From assembly GCA_041658885.1 (NCBI GenBank), contig JBAZZJ010000002.1, forward strand, positions 14,649 to 78,648: a DNA stretch of 64,000 nt. The letters are read 5' to 3'. Source of the DNA: Minisyncoccota bacterium. GTDB lineage: Bacteria; Patescibacteriota; Minisyncoccia; Phycocordibacterales; 21-14-all-36-13. The notes under the pieces are model-generated. The model did not search any database. It saw only the letters and a list, made by a program, of their open reading frames with translations, and had not been told where the DNA came from. Below are positions 1,320 through 50,180 of this stretch, piece by piece (the first letter of the stretch is position 1; the number at the start of each line of letters is the position of its first letter). Made by a program: the position numbers and the translations under genes.

Positions 1320-1429
1320 TTTAAAAACTTGATTAAAATAAAATATAAGTATACTATTTTATTTTAGATGGTAGGTTATTTCAAATTTTTAATTTATTTT
1401 TTTTGAACCATAATTTCTAAGGAGGAAAA

Positions 1430-1699
1430 ATGGCACGGAATGCTTTAAAGATAGAATTTGAATTCTATCTTAGAAATCAAACGAGACTTGTTAAAAAATA
1501 TAGCGGAAGATATCTTCTCATAGTTAAAAGAAGAGTACGTGGAGATTTTGAAAATTATGGCTCCACTTATCTTTTCGGATTAAAAAAATATAAACTAGGT
1601 ACTTTTTTAATTCAAAAATGTTCGCCTGGTGACAAAGATTACACTGCTAATATCTTTTTACACAAGGCTTCGGTTAGAAAATCTAAATCTAGAAAATAA
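1430..1699 (+). CDS. hypothetical small protein (89 aa)
   Basis: AAGGAGG lies 6 nt upstream of the ATG and a hairpin terminator follows directly. Confidence 0.5.
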   Translation: MARNALKIEFEFYLRNQTRLVKKYSGRYLLIVKRRVRGDFENYGSTYLFGLKKYKLGTFLIQKCSPGDKDYTANIFLHKASVRKSKSRK

Positions 1700-1702
1700 C
1701 TT

Positions 1703-1736
1703 TTGCCACAGACTCATTCTGTGGCAATCTTTTTGT
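1703..1736 (+). terminator. intrinsic terminator
   Basis: TTGCCACAGA-ctcat-TCTGTGGCAA followed by a T-rich run. Confidence 0.7.
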
Positions 1737-1787
1737 TTATATTTCATAATTTATCAAAACCATTTCAAAATGTTATATTAAAAGGCA

Positions 1788-2471
1788 ATGAAACAATTTT
1801 TTATTATAGCCACGCCAATAGGAAATCTTGAGGACATAACCCTTAGGGCAATTCGTACTCTAAAAGAGGTTGATTTGGTTTTGTGTGAAGATACACGAGT
1901 TACCAAAAAACTACTTGATAAGTATGAAATTAAAACTCCCACAATGAGTTATCACTCACAAAGTAAATTATCAAAAATTGATAAAATTTTAGATTTAATT
2001 GAAGAAAGAAAAACATTAGCACTTGTTTCTGATGCAGGCACGCCGTGCATCTCTGACCCAGGTTCACTTCTTGTTTCTAAAATTAAAGAAAAATTTTTAG
2101 AAGATATACAAATAATTCCGATACCCGGACCGAGTGCAGTTATTTCAGCTCTTTCTGGTGCAGGAGTTCCGGTGTCAGATTTTTTATTTTTAGGATTTTT
2201 ACCGCATAAGAAGGGAAGAGAAACATTGTTTAAAGAAATTTCCGAATCAAAAAGAACAGTTGTTTTTTTTGAATCACCTCACAGGATTTTAAAGACATTA
2301 GAATCTCTAAAAAAATATTTAAAAGACAATAAGAAAATAACAATTGCTCGTGAACTTACAAAAATCTATGAACAAATTATTTCAGGAGATTCGGAAGAAC
2401 TTCTAAGTTATTTTAATAAAAATAAAGATAAAATTAAGGGTGAATTTGTTGTAATTATTTCAAAAAATTAA
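1788..2471 (+). CDS. rsmI: 16S rRNA (cytidine1402-2'-O)-methyltransferase
   Basis: IATPIGNLEDITLRAIRTLKEVDLVLCEDTR, SDAGTPCISDPG and FFESPHR are characteristic of the RsmI tetrapyrrole-methylase fold. Confidence 0.9.
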   Translation: MKQFFIIATPIGNLEDITLRAIRTLKEVDLVLCEDTRVTKKLLDKYEIKTPTMSYHSQSKLSKIDKILDLIEERKTLALVSDAGTPCISDPGSLLVSKIKEKFLEDIQIIPIPGPSAVISALSGAGVPVSDFLFLGFLPHKKGRETLFKEISESKRTVVFFESPHRILKTLESLKKYLKDNKKITIARELTKIYEQIISGDSEELLSYFNKNKDKIKGEFVVIISKN

Positions 2472-41602: not shown

Positions 41603-44600
41603 ATGAAAGACGAAATTTTCATAAAAGGGGAGAAATATATTACTACTAAATCTGCATCTGAATTGACCAACTACACGAGTGATTATGTAGGTCAACTTTC
41701 TCGTTCAAATAAAATCAAATCAACGATGATAGGGCATACAAGATATGTGTGTGAAGACGATATTTTGAATTATGGTGAAAATGGAGGTGTTTTAATTAAT
41801 GACAAAAAATATATATCTACAAAAAAAGCTTCTGAATTGACGGGCTATACAAGTGATTATGTAGGACAGATATCTCGTAGTGGAATAATAAAATCTAAAT
41901 TAGTTGGAAAAACTAAATTTGTTGAAGAAATTGAAATTTTAGAATACGCAAAAAAATTTGGTAGAACAAATTTTATAGAGAATAATTTAAACGAAGAAGA
42001 AAAAGATACTTTAGCAAAAAAAATAATTGGTGATAAAAAAGAAAAAAATTTTGTTAAAACAAAAGATGTAAAATATTTTGACGATAATTTCTCTCTAATT
42101 CCAGAATTAAAAAAAGACAGGGAAGGTTTTTCAAAAGAAAAATATTTATCTGAGCAGACAAAAAAAATAATTTCTCCATTTGAAAAACCAACATCGTTTG
42201 CAAGCGATGCACTCTTTAAAAAAGTTGTAGCACTTTGTTTGGCAATAACTGTGATTCTTGGACCATATGCTTTTATGCAAACTCCGTACGCGGAAGCTTC
42301 ACAGGAAAAATTAAAATCTCTCGCAAATAATGTTTATGAAATTGGAAGTGAAGTTATAGAAAAGATAAATAATGATGGAGTAATAATTTTAATAACAGAC
42401 TCAATTGCTTATACTAAAAATGTTTTAAAAGACAAAACAAAATCACTTGCTGTAAATACAGCGAGTGTGATTTTATCAGCAAATGTTCAAAAAACGAGTT
42501 TCTCAATTAAGAATTTTGCTAAGAAAATTTACGTATCTATAAACTCGCTTTTTGGAAAAAATGAAATAGATGAAAATATAGAATTAGTTCAATCAGATAA
42601 CTTGGTGTCTAAGACACCAAGTTCACCAAGTTCACCAAGTTCACCAAGTTTGTCAGATTTACCATTAACAAAAACAGTTGTAATTGAAGGCCCAACAAGG
42701 ATTGTAGAGAGAATATTGGAAAAACAATCAATTGTCAGTGGTATTTCAAAAGAAGAATTAGAAAGTAAGATTCAACAATTAGACAACAAATTAAGCTCAA
42801 AAATATATGCAGTTTCTTCTGGGACTCCAAATAGTGTCCAGACCGTTTACCAAATGGTGTCTCAAACGAACAAAATTGATAAATTAGTAAGCGGGGTTGA
42901 AATAGTTTCTCCAGCAATAACGGGGGGTACACTAAAAGACACAATAGTAACAGGTTCAACCTTTTCCGGAACCACAATGAGCGGTTCCACACTAACATTA
43001 ACCGGCGGAGCAACAGTTGGAGGCCAATTAATAGTTTCTGGAATATCAACGTCAACAATCGCAGGTGATACAAATTTTGATACAGGCACATTATTTATTG
43101 ATTCTTTGAATAATAGAATTGGAATAGGGACATCAACGCCACAATATGCGTTAGATATTGTCGGAACTTTAAATGTTTCAAGTATTGTGACATCTGCAGG
43201 AGAAACAATAGGCGGGAACCTTGATATAACGGGCAACACAACGCTCGGAAATGCTACAACTTCTGATAAAACATATTTCAACTCAAGAATAGGAACATCA
43301 CTAATACCAACAATAGATAATGTATTAGATATCGGAGATAGTTCAAATTGGTTGAGATGGAGGTCGGGATTTTTTGGAACATCTGTTGGAATCGGAGGAA
43401 CATCTACATCAACGGGCTCATCTCTCCTTTCATCTGGAGTTTACACAATTGATTCTATAAATGGGATTCTTTTTAATACAACAAACAATGCTTCAACCAC
43501 TTTTGGTACAGGTCTTGTGACTCTTCCAAATCTTTCTGGTACAAACGCAACAACGACCAACTCGACTTCGACGAACCTCTATTCGTCTACGCTCGTTGCA
43601 GGAAATGCAACTACTACGAACTTCTATACTTCTATATTTAATGCAGTATCTGGTATCTTTTCAAATTTAATCACAACAACATTCACAGCAACAAATTCAA
43701 CAACAACAAACGCCACAAGCACAACACTTGCAATAACAAACACAGCGACAACAAGCAATCTTATTGTTTCAAATGACACAACAATCTCATCTCTAACACC
43801 GTCAAGGTTAGTGTCTCTAAACAGTTCAAGAAAACTAACTAACACAGATTTATTCTCTTGGGTTTCAGGAACGACAAATCAAATTACAATCACAGACGAT
43901 TCTGATGGAACAATTACACTTTCACTTCCGCAAAATATTCACACATCAGCAAATCCAACATTTAATAATCTAACTCTCACAGGAACTCTAAACACAACAG
44001 GTTTATCATCTTTCACACAGGCGTCAACTACACGACTTTCTGTTTTTGATACTTTGTATGTTGGAGGAACTTCAACAACTACAATCACACAATCTGCAAT
44101 CAACATTCCAACAGGAGGAAATTATCAAATCAACGGAACAAGTGTTCTTTCCGCGACAGTACTTGGTTCAGGAGTTTTGTCCTCATCTCTCACAAGTGTC
44201 GGGACGCTCTCTTCTCTTACCATTGGAGGAACATTAGCAATGGGAGCAAACAATATTACATCTACTGGTTCACTAGGTGCTACCGGTGCCAGAATATTAA
44301 AAGGTTGGTTTACTGATTTAGAAAGTACCAATGCAATTGTAGGTTCTATTACTGGCAACGCCGCTACTGTCACTACTAATGCTAACTTGACTGGTCCAAT
44401 AACTTCTGTTGGTAATGCAACAGCGATTGCTTCACAAACAGGAACTGGAACAAAGTTTGTAGTAGATACTTCTCCAACTTTAATAACTCCTCAATTAGGT
44501 TATGCTTCATCTACTCAACTAAGTATCGGCTCGGACTACATAACAGATATAAATGGAACCGGATTAACACTTTCTGCCGGCGGAGTGCTTTCTCTTAACG

Positions 44601-47600
44601 CAACAGGAAACTGGACAGGTACATTTGATAATCAAGAGGGAAGTTATTATCTAGATGCAAGAAATTTAACAAACTTCGGAAGTCCCTTTTATACATATTT
44701 TAGTGCAACAACAACAGATGCATTAACTCAAGGTTCAACTAATAAATACTGGTCTCAAACTTTATTTGATAATGCCCTTACTGCGACAACAACTCTACCC
44801 AAAATTACTGCATTAACTTCGTTGTCAATCACAAAGAGTCAAGTCAGTGATTTTGGAACATATGAAAATCCACTAACATTTAATTATCCATTATCAAGAA
44901 GTGTTAATGCAATTTCAACAGTAGCAACTTCATCACTCGGACTTTTGGTAGGTTCTTTTGCCTCACCAAACATCTCACAATGGACAAATAATTCAAATTA
45001 TATAGCTTTGACTAATTTATCCGCCACAAATCCTATAACCTACAATAATGGAACTGGTGCAATAGGGTGGACTAATTCAAATAACTATATTGCTCTTACA
45101 GATTTGTCGGCAACCTATCCAATTATAAAAACAAGTGGAGTGTTCAGCACGGGTTTTGGAACAACAACAACAAATATTTTTTCTGCATTAAACACTTTTG
45201 CTAATGCTACCACCACTCTTTTAACTGCACCCGATGTTTGGATTACAAAACTTCGCAATCTTACCTCTAATGGTTTTATAAAAACATCTGGTGGCGACGG
45301 GACATTAAGTATTGATACAAATACATATCTAACAACGGTAGGTTCGGGAACAAACGGAAATTTAGCTTATTGGAATGGGACTAATACTTTAACAGGAGTA
45401 GCTACGACCACACTCACAGCAACGGCACCAATGACACTATCTCAACCAATTTCTGTTATAGGTTCAAGTGCTTCAGTTTTAACTTGTGCCACTGCCTCTG
45501 GTTCAGTGTCGGGATGTCTTTCATCAACAGATTGGACTACATTTAATAATAAAGGAAGTGGAACCATTACCTCAATAGCTACTAATAATGGATTGACAGG
45601 TGGAACTATTACAACATCAGGAACGATAGGATTAAATACTGCAGGATTTTCTACAAATGCTCTTCTAACTTGGAATGGTTCAAATCTCGTAGCAACGGGA
45701 ACACCTGCATTGACGGCTGGATACTTTATAGCTACGACAACAACTGCGACATCAACATTTGCTGGGGGACTAACCGCAGGTTCTAATTCCGCACTTGTTG
45801 TTGAAAGTGGAGCTACCGCCAATAGTTTATATGTTAAAACAAATGGCAACGTCGGTATCGGGACGGTGAGTCCTGGAGAGAAGTTGGATGTTGTTGGAGT
45901 AGTTAAGATTGAAACCGGGACTGGTGCAACTACTTATGCTAATAGAGAAGCAGTGTTGAACTTCGGTGCAGCAAACTACCTCACTACATATCGGAATAGA
46001 ATAACGAATAGTATTTCCTCTACACTTGCAGATGCGACGATGAATTTTGAAGTTACAAATGGTGCTTCAACATATGCTTCTGTTATGACTTTAACAGGAG
46101 CTGGCAACGTCGGCATCGGGACGACCAGTCCATACGCAAAACTATCAATTGAAGGAACATCTGCTTTAGGAAACTCCGCACTTGCTGGATATTTCATTGC
46201 GACTACAACAACTGCTACATCAACTTTTGCAGGAGGTTTAACTGCGGGAACGAACAATGCTTTAACAGTTGAAGGTGGTGCTACTGCTAATAGTTTATAT
46301 GTTAAGACAAATGGAAATGTCGGCATCGGGACGACGGTTCCTGGTCTAATTCTTGAAGTTAAAGCAGGAACAGGAAGTAACTATCCTGCTGGTTTCACTA
46401 CGAGTGATTGGGTCTCTGGGACAACAGGATCGCGCTTAGCATTCGGATTCGGGGCGAATACTGGGAACACATACGCAACACTTAATGCGCAAACAGCAGG
46501 GGGCTCAGTCTCAACGGGGAGTCTTGTGTTAGCGAATCTCGGAGGCAACGTCGGCATCGGGACGACGGCTCCAGGGTATCAACTGACAGTCAAAGCACCA
46601 GTAACGCAGGATACAAATATCTCTTTAGATAATACGAGTTCTGGTAGCCGATGGTTAGTTCAACAAAAAGTGAGCGGAGATTTTGCCATTGTGGGTGCTG
46701 GTGAATACTTACGGATTTTAAATACTTCCGGCAACGTCGGCATCGGGGATGCGGCTCCATCGTTTAAATTGGATGTAGAATCAAGTTTAGATAATTGGGT
46801 AGCAAGCATAAAAAATACAAGAACAAGTGATATTTACGGAAGAGGACTTTATGTTGAAGGAGGGAGTACTAGTACAGATTTTTTGTTTCAGGTAAATGCA
46901 GCTGGTACGGAAAGATTAGTAATAAAGGGCAACGGCAACGTCGGCATCGGGACGACGACACCTATCTCCACCCTCTCAGTTCAAGGTTCATTGTGTGTTC
47001 GTGATACAGGAAGTTGTGGTACAACCGCAGGAACTATTTATGCGACAACAGCTACAATAACAGACATAGACCTTGCTGAAAATTATTTAACCAATGACCA
47101 AACAATTGAAGCAGGTGAAATTGTATCTTTGGACTTAAGTAATCCTGAATTTATAAAAAGAGCAGAAACAGGAGAAAAATTACTTGGGGTAATTTCAACA
47201 AAGCCAGGTATACTTCTCGGACAAGAAATTAAAAATGGAAAGCCGATAGCTCTAAAGGGTAGAGTGCCAGTAAAAGTAAATTCAGATGGAGGAGATATAT
47301 TTATAGGAGATAAAATTACAATATCGAGTGTTTCAGGGGTTGGTATGAAGGCAAACAAAACTTCTCAGACGATAGGCACCGCTCTAGAACCGTTTATTGG
47401 AGGTGGAACAAGTTCAATTATGGTAAATGTTGAAAATGAATTCACTTTCTCTCAATTAGATTTCTTTGTTGATTCCAACGGCAACGTCGGTATCGGCACA
47501 TCAACTCCAGAATACAAATTGCATGTTGTCGGAGAAATAGCGGCGCAGTCATTTATAAACATTTCAACTCGCGATGAAAAAGAGGACATTTCATACTACG

Positions 47601-48661
47601 ATGATTCTGATTATGAATCAGCGCTTGAAAAAATTTCAGGAATGAAAGTTGCAACATACAATTATAAAAAAGGTCCTTATGGGAGTGAGATGGTTAGAAA
47701 TGGTTTTGGTTTTGGATTTGGATTTGACGGAAATATAGGAATGGGTGATAGCGCTGGTGCTATCGTTAACACAGAAACAGGAGAAACTATTAATTTAGAA
47801 ACAGGAATGATGACAACCCGCTATCTCGGTTTGATTGCAGAAGAAGCTCCGGCGGAAGTTTTGTCAGTAGACGGAAAAGGGGTTGATTTATATAAATTAA
47901 CAACGCTCACACTTTCGGCCGTGAAAGCACTGGACATTCGTTTAGACGAACTCTCGGCTCGTATGAATGCTTTTGGTTTTGGAGAAGCAACTTCAACAGA
48001 TTCAGTTAGTTCAGGCTCAACGATAATTGACTCACTTCTCGCATTTCTTGAAAAGTTGGGTGTGAAGATTACAGACGGACTTGCTTCTTTCAAAGGGCTT
48101 GTTGTAAATACACTCAAGGTTGGTTCAAAAGAATTGCCGAGCGGTATTACACTTTATGACGAGAAGACAGGCGAACCGTATTGTTTGAAAATTAAAAATG
48201 GAGTAGTGGTTTCTTCAGCGGGGGAATGTGCTAATTCTGCTTCTGCTTCTGCTTCCAGCGGTTCAACCGTTGATATTAATTCCGACGGCTCCGCCTCTGG
48301 CTCCGCCGGACAAAGTACGACAACTCCTGTAATTACACTTATCGGAAACAATCCTGCAGAGATTGAAAAGGGAACAACATTCGTAGACCCTGGAGCAACA
48401 GCTGTAGATTCAAAAGGACAATCATTAATGCCAGACATAATTGAAAACACAGTTGATACGTCGATGACCGGTGAATATAAAGTTGTTTGGTCAGTTAATG
48501 ACAGCGAATCAAATTATGCAAGTACGACCAGAAGGGTAATTGTTATTGACCCAAATACGACAGAAAATACGACAGAAACTACCACAACAACCTCGATAAA
48601 TCCAGAGCAAGCCACTTCGACAAGTTCAGAGCAAACAGCAACATCAACAGAATCTCAATAA
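41603..48661 (+). CDS. giant (2352 aa) membrane-anchored fibre protein: N-terminal tandem HTH-like repeats, one TM helix, tail-fibre-like repeat region, endosialidase-chaperone (peptidase S74)-like segment, terminal Ig-like domain
   Basis: YITTKSASELTNYTSDYVGQLSRS / YISTKKASELTGYTSDYVGQISRS; TM helix VVALCLAITVILGPYAF; seven NGNVGIGT-type motifs; YLGLIAEEAPAEV...LYKLTTLTLSAVKALDIRLDEL; PVITLIGNNPAEIEKGTTFVDPGATAVD. Confidence 0.85.
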   Translation: MKDEIFIKGEKYITTKSASELTNYTSDYVGQLSRSNKIKSTMIGHTRYVCEDDILNYGENGGVLINDKKYISTKKASELTGYTSDYVGQISRSGIIKSKLVGKTKFVEEIEILEYAKKFGRTNFIENNLNEEEKDTLAKKIIGDKKEKNFVKTKDVKYFDDNFSLIPELKKDREGFSKEKYLSEQTKKIISPFEKPTSFASDALFKKVVALCLAITVILGPYAFMQTPYAEASQEKLKSLANNVYEIGSEVIEKINNDGVIILITDSIAYTKNVLKDKTKSLAVNTASVILSANVQKTSFSIKNFAKKIYVSINSLFGKNEIDENIELVQSDNLVSKTPSSPSSPSSPSLSDLPLTKTVVIEGPTRIVERILEKQSIVSGISKEELESKIQQLDNKLSSKIYAVSSGTPNSVQTVYQMVSQTNKIDKLVSGVEIVSPAITGGTLKDTIVTGSTFSGTTMSGSTLTLTGGATVGGQLIVSGISTSTIAGDTNFDTGTLFIDSLNNRIGIGTSTPQYALDIVGTLNVSSIVTSAGETIGGNLDITGNTTLGNATTSDKTYFNSRIGTSLIPTIDNVLDIGDSSNWLRWRSGFFGTSVGIGGTSTSTGSSLLSSGVYTIDSINGILFNTTNNASTTFGTGLVTLPNLSGTNATTTNSTSTNLYSSTLVAGNATTTNFYTSIFNAVSGIFSNLITTTFTATNSTTTNATSTTLAITNTATTSNLIVSNDTTISSLTPSRLVSLNSSRKLTNTDLFSWVSGTTNQITITDDSDGTITLSLPQNIHTSANPTFNNLTLTGTLNTTGLSSFTQASTTRLSVFDTLYVGGTSTTTITQSAINIPTGGNYQINGTSVLSATVLGSGVLSSSLTSVGTLSSLTIGGTLAMGANNITSTGSLGATGARILKGWFTDLESTNAIVGSITGNAATVTTNANLTGPITSVGNATAIASQTGTGTKFVVDTSPTLITPQLGYASSTQLSIGSDYITDINGTGLTLSAGGVLSLNATGNWTGTFDNQEGSYYLDARNLTNFGSPFYTYFSATTTDALTQGSTNKYWSQTLFDNALTATTTLPKITALTSLSITKSQVSDFGTYENPLTFNYPLSRSVNAISTVATSSLGLLVGSFASPNISQWTNNSNYIALTNLSATNPITYNNGTGAIGWTNSNNYIALTDLSATYPIIKTSGVFSTGFGTTTTNIFSALNTFANATTTLLTAPDVWITKLRNLTSNGFIKTSGGDGTLSIDTNTYLTTVGSGTNGNLAYWNGTNTLTGVATTTLTATAPMTLSQPISVIGSSASVLTCATASGSVSGCLSSTDWTTFNNKGSGTITSIATNNGLTGGTITTSGTIGLNTAGFSTNALLTWNGSNLVATGTPALTAGYFIATTTTATSTFAGGLTAGSNSALVVESGATANSLYVKTNGNVGIGTVSPGEKLDVVGVVKIETGTGATTYANREAVLNFGAANYLTTYRNRITNSISSTLADATMNFEVTNGASTYASVMTLTGAGNVGIGTTSPYAKLSIEGTSALGNSALAGYFIATTTTATSTFAGGLTAGTNNALTVEGGATANSLYVKTNGNVGIGTTVPGLILEVKAGTGSNYPAGFTTSDWVSGTTGSRLAFGFGANTGNTYATLNAQTAGGSVSTGSLVLANLGGNVGIGTTAPGYQLTVKAPVTQDTNISLDNTSSGSRWLVQQKVSGDFAIVGAGEYLRILNTSGNVGIGDAAPSFKLDVESSLDNWVASIKNTRTSDIYGRGLYVEGGSTSTDFLFQVNAAGTERLVIKGNGNVGIGTTTPISTLSVQGSLCVRDTGSCGTTAGTIYATTATITDIDLAENYLTNDQTIEAGEIVSLDLSNPEFIKRAETGEKLLGVISTKPGILLGQEIKNGKPIALKGRVPVKVNSDGGDIFIGDKITISSVSGVGMKANKTSQTIGTALEPFIGGGTSSIMVNVENEFTFSQLDFFVDSNGNVGIGTSTPEYKLHVVGEIAAQSFINISTRDEKEDISYYDDSDYESALEKISGMKVATYNYKKGPYGSEMVRNGFGFGFGFDGNIGMGDSAGAIVNTETGETINLETGMMTTRYLGLIAEEAPAEVLSVDGKGVDLYKLTTLTLSAVKALDIRLDELSARMNAFGFGEATSTDSVSSGSTIIDSLLAFLEKLGVKITDGLASFKGLVVNTLKVGSKELPSGITLYDEKTGEPYCLKIKNGVVVSSAGECANSASASASSGSTVDINSDGSASGSAGQSTTTPVITLIGNNPAEIEKGTTFVDPGATAVDSKGQSLMPDIIENTVDTSMTGEYKVVWSVNDSESNYASTTRRVIVIDPNTTENTTETTTTTSINPEQATSTSSEQTATSTESQ
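42615..42650 (+). repeat. 9-nt in-frame tandem repeat (PSS)n
   Basis: CACCAAGTT x4. Confidence 0.85.
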
Positions 48662-48670
48662 TTAACACCC

Positions 48671-48693
48671 TGTCAAACACCCGGTGTTTGACA
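48671..48693. repeat. REP-like palindrome P1
   Basis: TGTCAAACACC-C-GGTGTTTGACA, followed by a partial copy of the promoter cassette. Confidence 0.85.
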
Positions 48694-48765
48694 ATTTTGC
48701 GATAGTTGATAAAAGAAAAATTTTTTCTGATACGCGTGATTTAAAAAGATTTATGTTAAACACCA

Positions 48766-48788
48766 TGTCAAACACCGGGTGTTTGACA
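48766..48788. repeat. REP-like palindrome P2
   Basis: TGTCAAACACC-G-GGTGTTTGACA (the central base is flipped relative to P1 and P3). Confidence 0.85.
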
Positions 48789-48812
48789 ATTTTGCGATAA
48801 AAGAAATATAAT
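48783..48812 (+). promoter_or_regulatory. consensus sigma70 promoter upstream of hicB, with its -35 inside palindrome P2
   Basis: TTGACA, 18 nt, TATAAT. Confidence 0.6.
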
Positions 48813-48848
48813 ATATGTTATGATATGATATAATATAAATATAAATAT

Positions 48849-49097
48849 ATGAAAAAGATTAAAACACAAATTAAGACTGACTACGGAATATTTCTCTGCA
48901 CATTTACACCAGATGAAGTAGGATATGTTACATTATGTCCTTCTGTTGAGGGGGTGGTAAGTTGGGGAAAGAATTTGTCCGAGGCAAAAAAAATGGTTAA
49001 AGAAGCCATTGAATTATGTATCGAAGCAAAGGTTGAAGACAATATAAAAAATGGAGTTGCCTCCAAGAGCGTCTCAATAAAAACATTAGTAGCATGA
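48849..49097 (+). CDS. hicB: HicB-family antitoxin (short form, no obvious DNA-binding domain)
   Basis: FLCTFTPDEVGYVTLCPSVEGVVSWGKNLSEAKKMVKEAIELCIE. ATGA overlap with hicA. Confidence 0.7.
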   Translation: MKKIKTQIKTDYGIFLCTFTPDEVGYVTLCPSVEGVVSWGKNLSEAKKMVKEAIELCIEAKVEDNIKNGVASKSVSIKTLVA

Positions 49098-49321
49098 GCA
49101 TTGTTCCCATCATAGTTGCAAGAGTTGTCATAACAACACTTGTTCGAGCAGGTTTTGTTGTTTTGCGTCAAAAAGGAAGTCATGTGTTTCTAAAAAACTC
49201 TATAACTCGAAAAATAACCTCTGTCCCAATGCATTCTGGAACACTCAAAAAAAGAACGCTTCTTGCTATTATTAAACAAGCCGGACTGACACTTGAGCAA
49301 TTTATTAAACTTTTACACTAA
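49094..49321 (+). CDS. hicA: HicA-family mRNA interferase toxin
   Basis: LVRAGFVVLRQKGSHVFLKN...VPMHSGTLKKRTLLAIIKQAGLTLEQF. Confidence 0.8.
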   Translation: MSIVPIIVARVVITTLVRAGFVVLRQKGSHVFLKNSITRKITSVPMHSGTLKKRTLLAIIKQAGLTLEQFIKLLH

Positions 49322-49369
49322 TTAGACTATAGATAAGAATATGGCTTGTAGCATATCAAACATCTTGTA

Positions 49370-49392
49370 TGTCAAACACCCGGTGTTTGACA
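49370..49392. repeat. REP-like palindrome P3
   Basis: TGTCAAACACC-C-GGTGTTTGACA. Confidence 0.85.
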
Positions 49393-49416
49393 ATTTTGTG
49401 ATAAAAGAAATATAAT
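49387..49416 (+). promoter_or_regulatory. consensus sigma70 promoter of the Y1 transposase gene
   Basis: TTGACA, 18 nt, TATAAT. The ATG lies only 7 nt after the -10, so the mRNA would be leaderless or nearly so. Confidence 0.6.
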
Positions 49417-49423
49417 ATATGTT

Positions 49424-50092
49424 ATGAATAGAGAAAATATCTCAGTAGATGAGCATTATCATATTTATAATAGGGGAGTTGGCAAAAAGATAATTTTCAA
49501 AGACGAAAGAGATCGGATTAGGTTTCTTTTTATAATTTTGTATTTTCAAGCAGAAAATTATTTTCCCCAAATTTCTAGAATTATTTCTTCATATGTCAAA
49601 CACCGGGTGTTTGACATAGATGATGATGTTAAAAGTCAGATAATTAAAGAAAGATTTGTGGAATTAGTTGGTTTTGTTTTAATGCCCAACCATTTTCATC
49701 TTATTGTAAAAGAAGTAAAAGAAGGAGGAATGGGTAAATATATGCAACGAGTTTTAAATTCTTATGCAAAATATTTTAATGCTCGCTATGGTGTATCTGG
49801 ACATCTTTTTGAAAGTCCCTATAAAGCAGTGCATGTTGAGGATAATGAACAGCTTTTATATCTTTCTGCTTATGTACATTTAAATCCAAAAGAATTAAAT
49901 TTGTGGAATGGGAAGGAAGACATTTTTCCTTGGTCAAGTTATCAAGATTATGTTAGAGAAAATCGTTGGGATGAAATTTTAAAAACGGAAATTATTTTTG
50001 AACAATTTAAAAACAAAGGAGAATACAAAAGTTTTGTTCAAACCAGTGGTGCAAAAGAAAAGAACGAAGAATTCAGTTTAGATTTAGATTAA
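49424..50092 (+). CDS. IS200/IS605-like Y1 (HUH) transposase of the REP-associated (RAYT) type
   Basis: YHIYNRGVGKKIIF, HUH motif LMPNHFHLIV, GHLFESPYKAV and catalytic-Tyr region LSAYVHLNP. Confidence 0.8.
   Translation: MNRENISVDEHYHIYNRGVGKKIIFKDERDRIRFLFIILYFQAENYFPQISRIISSYVKHRVFDIDDDVKSQIIKERFVELVGFVLMPNHFHLIVKEVKEGGMGKYMQRVLNSYAKYFNARYGVSGHLFESPYKAVHVEDNEQLLYLSAYVHLNPKELNLWNGKEDIFPWSSYQDYVRENRWDEILKTEIIFEQFKNKGEYKSFVQTSGAKEKNEEFSLDLD
49593..49617. repeat. REP-like palindrome P4, inside the transposase coding sequence
   Basis: ATGTCAAACACC-G-GGTGTTTGACAT, a perfect 25-nt palindrome translated in frame as YVKHRVFDI. Confidence 0.85.
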
Positions 50093-50099
50093 AAATAAA

Positions 50100-50152
50100 T
50101 GTCAAACACCGGTGTTTGACAAGTGTTTGACAAGTTTGACAACAATTTGACA
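50100..50152. repeat. REP-like palindrome P5 plus an array of TTTGACA half-sites
   Basis: TGTCAAACACCGGTGTTTGACA (50100-50121), with TTTGACA at 50115, 50126, 50135 and 50146 (spacings 11, 9, 11). Confidence 0.8.
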
Positions 50153-50153
50153 T

Positions 50154-50176
50154 AAAAGCCCCTATTAGGGGCTTTT
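50154..50176. terminator. bidirectional terminator between convergent genes
   Basis: AAAAGCCCCTA-T-TAGGGGCTTTT. Confidence 0.8.
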
Positions 50177-50180
50177 AAAG

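Follow-up and report, generated by a model that had tools for sequence, protein, structure and literature searches.

A Y1 transposase gene with flanking and in-frame copies of its palindrome in Patescibacteria: a probable REPtron-like unit

Genes and palindromes at the locus

We analyzed a stretch of 64,000 nucleotides from a Minisyncoccota bacterium (contig JBAZZJ010000002.1; referred to as the window), in which a gene encoding a Y1 transposase (Y1) and a hicBA toxin-antitoxin (TA) cassette are embedded in five copies of a short palindrome (Table 1). The palindrome, TGTCAAACACC-N-GGTGTTTGACA, has a length of 23 nt and occurs four times without a mismatch, where zero occurrences were expected (100 dinucleotide-preserving shuffles of the window); the fifth copy is a 22-nt form that lacks the centre base. 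The 11-nt half-site (≤ 1 mismatch) was recovered 12 times as compared to 1.0 expected, and all these matches were located between positions 48671 and 50132. When folded as single-stranded DNA (ssDNA), each copy yields a 10-bp stem with a 3-nt loop (around -9 kcal/mol; z from -3.2 to -5.7). A preliminary description of the stretch had already listed the five copies and only one start needed correction, to 49594, as position 49593 takes in a flanking A. It had also seen an alternating orientation, like that of the doublets formed by repetitive extragenic palindromic (REP) sequences: the centre bases of copies 1 to 4 indeed read C, G, C, G, but this 'alternation' rests on one base in four copies because copy 5 has no centre base, and no fixed orientation was found family-wide. 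A REPIN-like doublet of copies 1 and 2 was rejected, as the 72-nt spacer, read from the sequence, has no self-complementarity. Rfam (gathering threshold) recovered just two tRNAs in the window, both away from the locus, and no known RNA family at the locus itself.

The Y1 protein was connected to the Pfam family Y1_Tnp (33 bits) and carries the motifs NHFHLIV and AYVHLNP; no other Pfam domain, including a C-terminal helix-turn-helix (HTH), was found in it. Within an alignment of 15 homologues (70% identity per column) the residues H90, H92, Y150, N154 and W170-S171-S172 were invariant, and the shared motifs were: NHFH, HLFQ(G/S)PY, Y[VI]H[LR]NP and WSSY, with NHFH and YVHLNP invariant or nearly so. 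The AlphaFold model (pLDDT 73) had its best structural match in the PDB with 4ER8_A (E 2.9e-5, TMt 0.62), the E. coli TnpA_REP bound to a REP hairpin, followed by the TnpA proteins of ISDra2 and IS608; at the sequence level, phmmer connected the protein to no solved structure and a profile search gave only ISDra2 TnpA (E 0.24). Class 2 TnpA_Y1 proteins have the HUH motif and a single Tyr in Y-x-x-x-N-P, whereas IS200 TnpA has Y-x-x-x-Q (PMC6006769, Table 1). The Y-x-x-x-N-P motif and the best structural match bear out the earlier view that Y1 is of the REP-associated tyrosine transposase (RAYT) type and not of the IS200 type, and by motifs alone it appears to match subclass 2.1 within class 2. 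An exhaustive search yielded 17,606 clusters of homologues (50% identity) at E ≤ 1e-3, 5937 at ≤ 1e-10 and 94 at ≤ 1e-30, and one search contained 1708 close homologues. Every named homologue came from the candidate phyla radiation (CPR/Patescibacteria), and the annotation of a metagenome-assembled genome of Candidatus Paceibacterota includes the identical protein.

The 59-bp direct repeat that brackets hicBA (2 differences) was recovered as described before, and a repeat-finding tool extends it to 72 nt (90% identity). The two consensus promoters that had been noted in it were confirmed, with 12 of 12 matching positions in both, and in both the right arm of the palindrome constitutes the -35 element. 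The hairpin thus doubles as part of a promoter in the window, but this role is limited to the lineages with TGTCAAAC, the palindromes of other lineages being unrelated at this position. The third, partial copy of the repeat was also found (48670-48741), but it is merely 65% identical: the palindrome and ATTTTGCGATA were kept and the remainder has decayed. The sequence of the repeat is compatible with the proposed capture of hicBA via a duplication of the 5' end of Y1. The toxin was clearly connected to HicA_toxin (Pfam; 63.8 bits), whereas the antitoxin was just above the cut-off of HicB_lk_antitox (27.1 bits, cut-off 27), with profile positions 9-56 of 123 matched; a C-terminal DNA-binding domain (ribbon-helix-helix or HTH) was not detected in it by Pfam. 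Since HicB has no detected DNA-binding domain, the expression and control of the cassette probably depend on the borrowed promoter and palindrome of Y1. For the same reason, and because hicBA is missing from nearly all loci of the same architecture, the palindrome was rejected as a HicB operator.

Copies 3 and 4 together with their flanks (49361-49392 and 49594-49625) form a 32-nt inverted repeat (94% complementary) that encloses the -10 element, the Y1 start codon and the gene's first 57 codons, and inversion of the 201-nt segment between the copies would disrupt the gene. The large open reading frame (ORF) upstream of copy 1 (2352 aa; 41603-48661) shows N-terminal tandem repeats (KYI[ST]TK.ASELT.YTSDYVGQ.SRS), long Thr/Ser/Gly-rich repeats and an Ig-like C-terminus. 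The GC-rich hairpin downstream of Y1 is likely a bidirectional terminator, one that falls below the T-run threshold of the terminator scan.

Table 1. Features of the Y1 locus (positions within the window)
Feature	Position	Strand	Remarks
Palindrome copy 1, centre C	48671..48693		10 nt past stop of 2352-aa ORF; followed by decayed promoter segment to ~48741
Left-half remnant TGTTAAACACC, 1 mismatch	48754..48764		Abuts copy 2
Direct repeat copy A	48765..48823	+	Palindrome, TTGACA-18-TATAAT promoter (48783-48812), ATGA
Palindrome copy 2, centre G	48766..48788		Right arm TTGACA = -35 of hicBA promoter
hicB-like antitoxin gene, 82 aa	48849..49097	+	N-terminal HicB fold only
hicA toxin gene, 75 aa	49094..49321	+	ATG overlaps hicB stop (ATGA, 49094-49097)
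Degenerate left-half remnant ATATCAAACATC	49353..49364		5' of copy 3
Direct repeat copy B	49369..49427	+	Palindrome, TTGACA-18-TATAAT promoter (49387-49416), Y1 start ATGA
Palindrome copy 3, centre C	49370..49392		Starts 54 nt before Y1 start codon; right arm = Y1 -35
Y1 gene, class 2 TnpA_Y1 (RAYT/TIRYT-like HUH nuclease), 222 aa	49424..50092	+	HUH H90/H92; Y150-VHLNP; WSSY residues 170-173
Palindrome copy 4, centre G	49594..49616		In-frame within Y1; encodes VKHRVFD (residues 58-64)
Palindrome copy 5, 22 nt	50100..50121		7 nt past Y1 stop codon (+676 from Y1 start)
Right-arm remnants AGTGTTTGACA, AGTTTGACA, ACAATTTGACA	50122..50152	+	Ladder of ever shorter remnants
GC-rich hairpin AAAAGCCCCTATTAGGGGCTTTT	50154..50176		Between convergent Y1 and MFS genes; read from sequence

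The palindrome inside and around Y1 genes

The preliminary description had missed that copy 4 is not extragenic and is located in-frame within Y1, at a position that is conserved across the family. A VKH[RLPSW]VFD-like peptide was found in 57 of the 120 best homologues, in about 54 of them at the position of copy 4. The residue at its centre is R, L, P, S or W, where R, L or P follow from the free centre base (CNG) and where S and W require an extra change in an arm. The codons used in this stretch are atypical: Val is encoded by GTG in 9 of 9 coding sequences (11% of the Val codons elsewhere in the same genes) and Arg by CGG or CGA in 7 of 7 (17% elsewhere). Moreover, codon 1 (third base) and codon 7 (first base) covary in all nine sequences (GTC-GAC six times and GTT-AAC three times), and the GTT-AAC pairing turns the Asp of codon 7 into Asn. 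The atypical codons and the covariation of the paired positions imply that the constraint acts on a DNA (or RNA) palindrome and not on the peptide. VKHRVFD was accordingly rejected as a conserved protein motif, on account of the centre residue that largely follows the free base, the rare codons and the covariation, and also because distant lineages have unrelated peptides at the same site. In protein alignments, the palindrome-coded residues map to two variable loops: the first separates helix A from the HuH strand and the second immediately follows the Tyr helix, before (W)SS; related lineages carry the palindrome in one loop, in the other or in both, with matching gaps in the alignment. The residues 46-63 of the AlphaFold model have a pLDDT < 50, and the palindrome-coded loop is of such low confidence.

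The genetic context of the homologues was recovered by scanning metagenome contigs with a Y1 protein profile (80 loci; 33-82% identity), supplemented with loci that were fetched for individual homologues. For the 73 distinct Y1 loci with enough flanking sequence we took the hairpin with the most copies per gene window, and windows of equal size at a distance of at least 1.5 kb served as controls (n = 75). At least two copies of one hairpin were found in 49 of the 73 loci, as compared to 0 of the 75 controls, and at least three copies in 20. In 42 of the 73 the copies were present both upstream (around -30 to -65 from the start) and at or just past the stop codon. Intragenic copies occurred in 24 of the 73 loci and were confined to two positions, nt 140-200 in 23 loci and nt 400-480 in 6. 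The hairpin sequence was uniform within a locus and different between lineages: TGTTCAAAGTTCGACTTTGAACA (L043), ACTTGGACACTCCGTGTCCAAGT (L074 and L088), ACTTGGGGGTGAAACCCCCAAGT (L080), TATCGAGGTT-N-AACCTCGATA (L099) and CTTACGAGGCTAAGCCTCGTAAG (L103), with L056 as a further example. The closest relatives of the window (L018, L112, L115 and L118; 76-82% identity) have the asymmetric TGTCAAACATCGGGTGTTTGACA at all three positions, and in the upstream copy of L118 a compensating change restores an A-T pair. These counts and the lineage-specific palindromes agree with the earlier claim that Y1 is flanked by its cognate palindrome like in a REPtron. A fixed orientation rule (upstream copy inverted with respect to the downstream copy) was considered and rejected: it holds in the clade of the window and fails across the family.

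Other peculiarities were encountered around the hairpins. Half-palindrome remnants abut full copies also in L005, L115 and L118, and some copies are located at the apex of longer, copy-specific palindromes: in L014 (5737-5787), L041 (a nested doublet), L043 and L051 (upstream) and L074 (downstream), some of these longer palindromes being terminator-like (AAAAAGCAT...ATGCTTTTT). Both the remnants and the apex-sited copies point to repeated events at or in existing hairpins, and the apex-sited copies suggest that hairpin loops may serve as insertion targets. L041 contains a second palindrome, TGTTCAACACCAGGTGTTGAACA, of the type of another Y1 lineage, at +771 nt from the Y1 start and 100 nt past the cognate downstream copy. 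L060 contains two Y1 paralogues 3.3 kb apart, the second at 3670-4320 nt after the start of the first gene, and cognate palindromes (upstream, intragenic and downstream) are present at the second Y1 only.

Chromosomal position, solitary copies and cargo

The chromosomal position of Y1 was compared between contigs. P0070 (identical protein) was located between pheS and the gene of a large CARDB protein in 24 of the 24 contigs read; P0003 and P0022, which are different species-level variants, are both found between a DEAD helicase gene and rpmB (L28), and P0013 was also constant in context. Identical HicA and Y1 were recovered from the window's own context only, and the identical locus had been assembled independently in another sample (L111). 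Among the contigs and loci compared an identical Y1 protein was never seen at two different sites, which corresponds to RAYT-like behaviour (PMC5581495). The window, L018, L112/L118 and L115 represent four unrelated gene contexts, and the similarity between the window and L018, read by eye, starts and stops at the outer palindromes; over longer times the Y1 unit has thus moved.

Within the representative genomes of GTDB, the exact palindrome was recovered from 17 stretches, all from Patescibacteria (Zambryski-, Vogel- and Paceibacterota, Minisyncoccia and Saccharibacteria), with 1-3 copies per genome. Five of these adjoin a Y1 homologue and 12 have no Y1 in the 3.5-8 kb (mostly 8 kb) that was fetched. 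The palindrome is in-frame in at least four conserved genes: mnmA (L009), ligA (L010), an rsmA-like gene (L013) and tgt (L015), and possibly it is also present in recO (L007); L074 carries its own lineage-specific palindrome in-frame in fmt. The copy in mnmA is missing from orthologues with 90% and 84% identity and it stands in place of the native loop, the net gain being one codon, and for these reasons it must be recent and not a simple insertion; a plain insertion of 23-27 nt was rejected on the basis of the alignment. The loop concerned lies between ATGHYA and (E)G.DKEKDQSYFLW and constitutes a hot spot in the MnmA orthologues of the CPR (among P0271-P0390): P0279, P0313, P0318, P0326 and P0327 carry unrelated inserts of 20-40 aa in MnmA, with recurring peptides (KNALSSSAE...RDVFSSQ) that look repeat-encoded. 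A search of the IMG/VR viral contigs gave no match to the exact palindrome and a phage origin of it was rejected. Separately, a PDDEXK_3 gene was observed between nusG and rplK in most samples (L023-L030); in L021 and L022 this gene is absent, no nusG was called and rplK was called truncated.

The hicBA cassette is found next to Y1 in the arrangement of the window in this genome only. The notion that Y1 is 'fused' to a TA pair does not hold, since the identical HicA was seen only in this genome context and other lineages carry other genes; Y1 loci without hicBA, which the preliminary description had suggested to look for, are in fact the rule. The cassette is lineage-specific cargo and not a designed fusion. 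In other lineages, the genes enclosed by an extra cognate palindrome and the copy that flanks Y1 encode: a DHFR (L056), an APH-family kinase (L089), unknown proteins (L093), a ParE-family toxin with a putative antitoxin (L084; 754-1253 nt after the Y1 start) and a pilin-like protein (L018, with a degenerate outer copy). The distant L065 has a divergent hicB-hicA pair beside Y1 (1368-1850, minus strand). The promoter was duplicated along with the palindrome in the window alone, and L056 has no extended repeat. When syntenic loci were compared, 6 of the 7 pairs differed by a non-homologous segment directly beside the Y1-flanking palindrome. Such segments were found in comparisons of L089 vs L092, L112 vs L118/L121, L006 vs L050/L051, L066 vs L097 and L060 vs L107; for example, the same slot contains an APH kinase in L089 and a GNAT acetyltransferase in L092, and in another case a 406-aa pilin-like protein is opposed to nothing. 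The cargo types seen are accessory: HicBA and ParE TA pairs, DHFR, APH, GNAT and pilin-like proteins.

Interpretation and comparison with known systems

We interpret the locus as a REPtron-like, though not canonical, unit of a CPR-wide family, in which a single-copy, chromosomally stable and domesticated-looking class 2 Y1 gene is combined with its cognate 23-nt palindrome, and assign a probability of around 0.65 to this interpretation. If Y1 works like E. coli TnpA_REP and IS608 TnpA, the palindrome would extrude on ssDNA as a hairpin with a 10-bp stem and a 3-nt loop, Y1 would bind this hairpin and its Tyr150 would cut and rejoin the DNA there. The activity of Y1 could then keep the copies at a locus identical while their sequence drifts between lineages, could now and then seed copies elsewhere, in loops of housekeeping genes and in the two tolerant loops of Y1 itself, and could make the borders of the gene hot spots of DNA exchange. 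In the window, one such event may have duplicated the 59 bp with palindrome, promoter and start codon, and may so have placed hicBA under a copy of the Y1 promoter. Since the upstream palindrome overlaps the promoter (and supplies the -35 element in the window), binding by Y1 probably autoregulates Y1 and, in this genome, hicBA.

A number of observations weigh against this interpretation. The Y1 family is known here from sequence and predicted structure, its role as a nuclease being assigned by analogy, and Y1 scores 31.4 bits with the NCBIfam equivalog NF047646 (REP_Tyr_transpos), below the cut-off of 80. Under the criteria used, no repeated hairpin was recovered from about one third (24 of 73) of the homologous loci, the copies have no fixed orientation across lineages, in contrast to the ordered ends of IS608, and the perfect dyad symmetry would equally suit a dimeric protein that binds double-stranded DNA (dsDNA). 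No conserved bases were found in the flanks of 22 palindrome copies and hence there is no GTAG-like foot. The copy number is also low. The preliminary description had seen confinement of the palindrome to the locus as a reason to prefer local regulation, and this partly applies: because all 12 half-site matches fall within the locus, the remaining ~62 kb of the window contain neither palindrome nor half-site (≤ 1 mismatch), and there are at most three exact copies per GTDB species-representative genome. The palindrome therefore does not constitute a high-copy REP family and 'REP proliferation' is at best weak.

The same data could be read as an autonomous IS200-like insertion sequence, in which the palindrome-Y1-palindrome unit (~750 bp) is mobile in its entirety and takes hicBA along as a passenger, enclosed by an outer and an inner end. 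The unit (49370-50121) measures 752 bp, which is about the size of IS200, the similarity between the window and its relatives of 76-82% identity is apparently restricted to the part between the palindromes while the gene contexts differ, and several lineages have cargo between an extra palindrome and Y1. Against this, the Y motif is Y-x-x-x-N-P and not the Y-x-x-x-Q of IS200 TnpA, identical proteins were never found at two sites, the site is syntenic across species-level divergence (P0003 vs P0022), the 64-kb window holds no second copy, and the ends are perfect palindromes without a fixed relative orientation; we consider this explanation unlikely. Slightly less probable still is that the palindrome is chiefly a dsDNA operator and promoter element at which a dimeric protein (Y1, bound through its C-terminal extension, or a host factor) controls Y1 and hicBA and where no cleavage takes place, the remaining copies being proposed to act as roadblocks or terminators. 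This would account for the perfect symmetry, for the upstream copy that is always located 3-40 nt before the start codon and contains a consensus -35 in the window, and for the same palindrome and promoter driving a hicBA whose HicB has no detected DNA-binding domain. It leaves unexplained why other genomes have in-frame copies in mnmA, ligA, tgt and fmt and why close orthologues lack such a copy. Moreover, the complementarity extends up to a centre of 1-3 nt, which is typical of hairpins and not of half-sites with a spacer, the family shows no variation in the catalytic HUH and Tyr residues, and the downstream copies have no T-run. The idea that the repeats arose by chance or as an assembly artefact, for which the metagenomic source of the assembly is the sole argument, is refuted to near certainty by the zero matches expected by chance, the identical locus that was assembled independently (L111) and the same architecture in dozens of unrelated assemblies.

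Y1 and its palindromes might also act as a small, integron-like platform for gene exchange in the CPR, with the hairpins as ssDNA recombination sites, in which single genes or operons are swapped beside Y1 and may inherit its palindrome or promoter. The idea is based on the 6 of 7 syntenic pairs that differ only beside the Y1 palindrome and on the five or six lineages with a palindrome-bracketed gene or operon; we regard it as speculative and rather improbable, and much the same pattern would result from a neutral process of local hairpin hopping and ordinary indels close to a recombinogenic site. The CPR have tiny genomes in which few mobile elements have been recognised, and if the variable slots reflect Y1 activity they would constitute a route of gene turnover in organisms that are otherwise deemed genetically static. 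In addition, the dozens of nuclease-hairpin pairs, with the hairpin present three to five times around or inside the nuclease gene, represent a natural covariation data set that is ideal for learning how Y1 enzymes recognise hairpins. A constraint at the DNA level here sets codons, and in Y1 even amino acids, and the palindrome is found in essential genes as well (mnmA, ligA and tgt).

REPtrons are said to consist of a RAYT/TnpA_REP gene that is flanked by REP/REPIN sequences, as for E. coli YafM (PDB 4ER8). The unit described here shares with them: the HUH motif and one Tyr in Y-x-x-x-N-P, TnpA_REP as best structural match, a single-copy gene at a stable position with its own hairpin palindrome on both sides, a palindrome type that co-varies with the protein lineage, and extra copies in the genome. 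RAYTs are likewise REP/REPIN-flanked, single-copy and stable in the chromosome, and group 1 of Bertels 2017 corresponds to the TIRYTs (PMC5581495). The differences with REPtrons are: the missing GT[AG]G foot (the palindrome begins with TGTC), a perfect palindrome of 23 nt versus imperfect REPs of 20-40 nt, a handful of copies versus tens to hundreds that are mostly extragenic, the score below the equivalog cut-off (31 vs 80 bits) and the host, which is a member of the CPR; we found no mention of Patescibacteria in the RAYT/REPIN literature searched, and a literature search with the half-site gave unrelated primer or gene matches only.

Within class 2, the members of subclass 2.4 have REPs in-frame inside tnpA_REP, in peripheral loops between HuH and Y (Quentin 2018, PMC6006769). 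Y1 resembles these in having the cognate palindrome within the transposase gene, with the frame intact and in peripheral loops, but their motifs are WQ and YIxNNP instead of FQ and YVHLNP, and one site in Y1 precedes the HuH strand and the other directly follows the Y helix, both being fixed family-wide. Subclass 2.1/TIRYT members have no REP-like hairpins, GGGGWSAS terminal inverted repeats and a C-terminal HTH (PMC6006769; PMC3733652), which is Bac_DnaA_C, HTH_23 or HTH_28 (PMC6006769). The likeness of Y1 to these, a match of motifs only, comprises NH[YF]H, FQ, Y[IV]HLNP, the SS tail and a length of ~220-240 aa; the differences are the complete palindrome at each end and the absence of an HTH according to Pfam. 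With TnpA of the IS200/IS605 family (IS608, ISDra2) it has in common the HUH/Y1 fold, hairpins at the borders and a unit of ~0.75 kb, whereas those elements have Y-x-x-x-Q, are multicopy (one copy in the window here), have imperfect end hairpins on one strand and no intragenic hairpins. HicAB type II TA systems are matched by the HicA domain and the overlapping upstream gene with a HicB fold; the C-terminal DNA-binding domain by which HicB exerts autoregulation was not detected here.

The palindromic elements of Rickettsia, with a length of 100-150 nt, reportedly occur in-frame in housekeeping genes. Intragenic REPs are found in genes for repair and tRNA modification (Di Nocera 2013, PMC3733652). 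The solitary copies resemble both in being in-frame in tRNA-modification and DNA-repair genes, where they are apparently tolerated in loops. They differ from the Rickettsia elements in size (23 nt vs 100-150 nt), in the link with an identifiable nuclease gene and, for MnmA, in having replaced the native loop while adding only one codon net. REPtrons, the co-evolution of RAYTs and REPs, in-frame REPs in tnpA_REP (PMC6006769) and intragenic REPs (PMC3733652) were already known; what differs here is the new host group, the combination of subclass-2.1-type motifs with hairpins, the short perfect palindrome without a GTAG foot, the low copy number, the two fixed intragenic sites and the recurring variable cargo slots.

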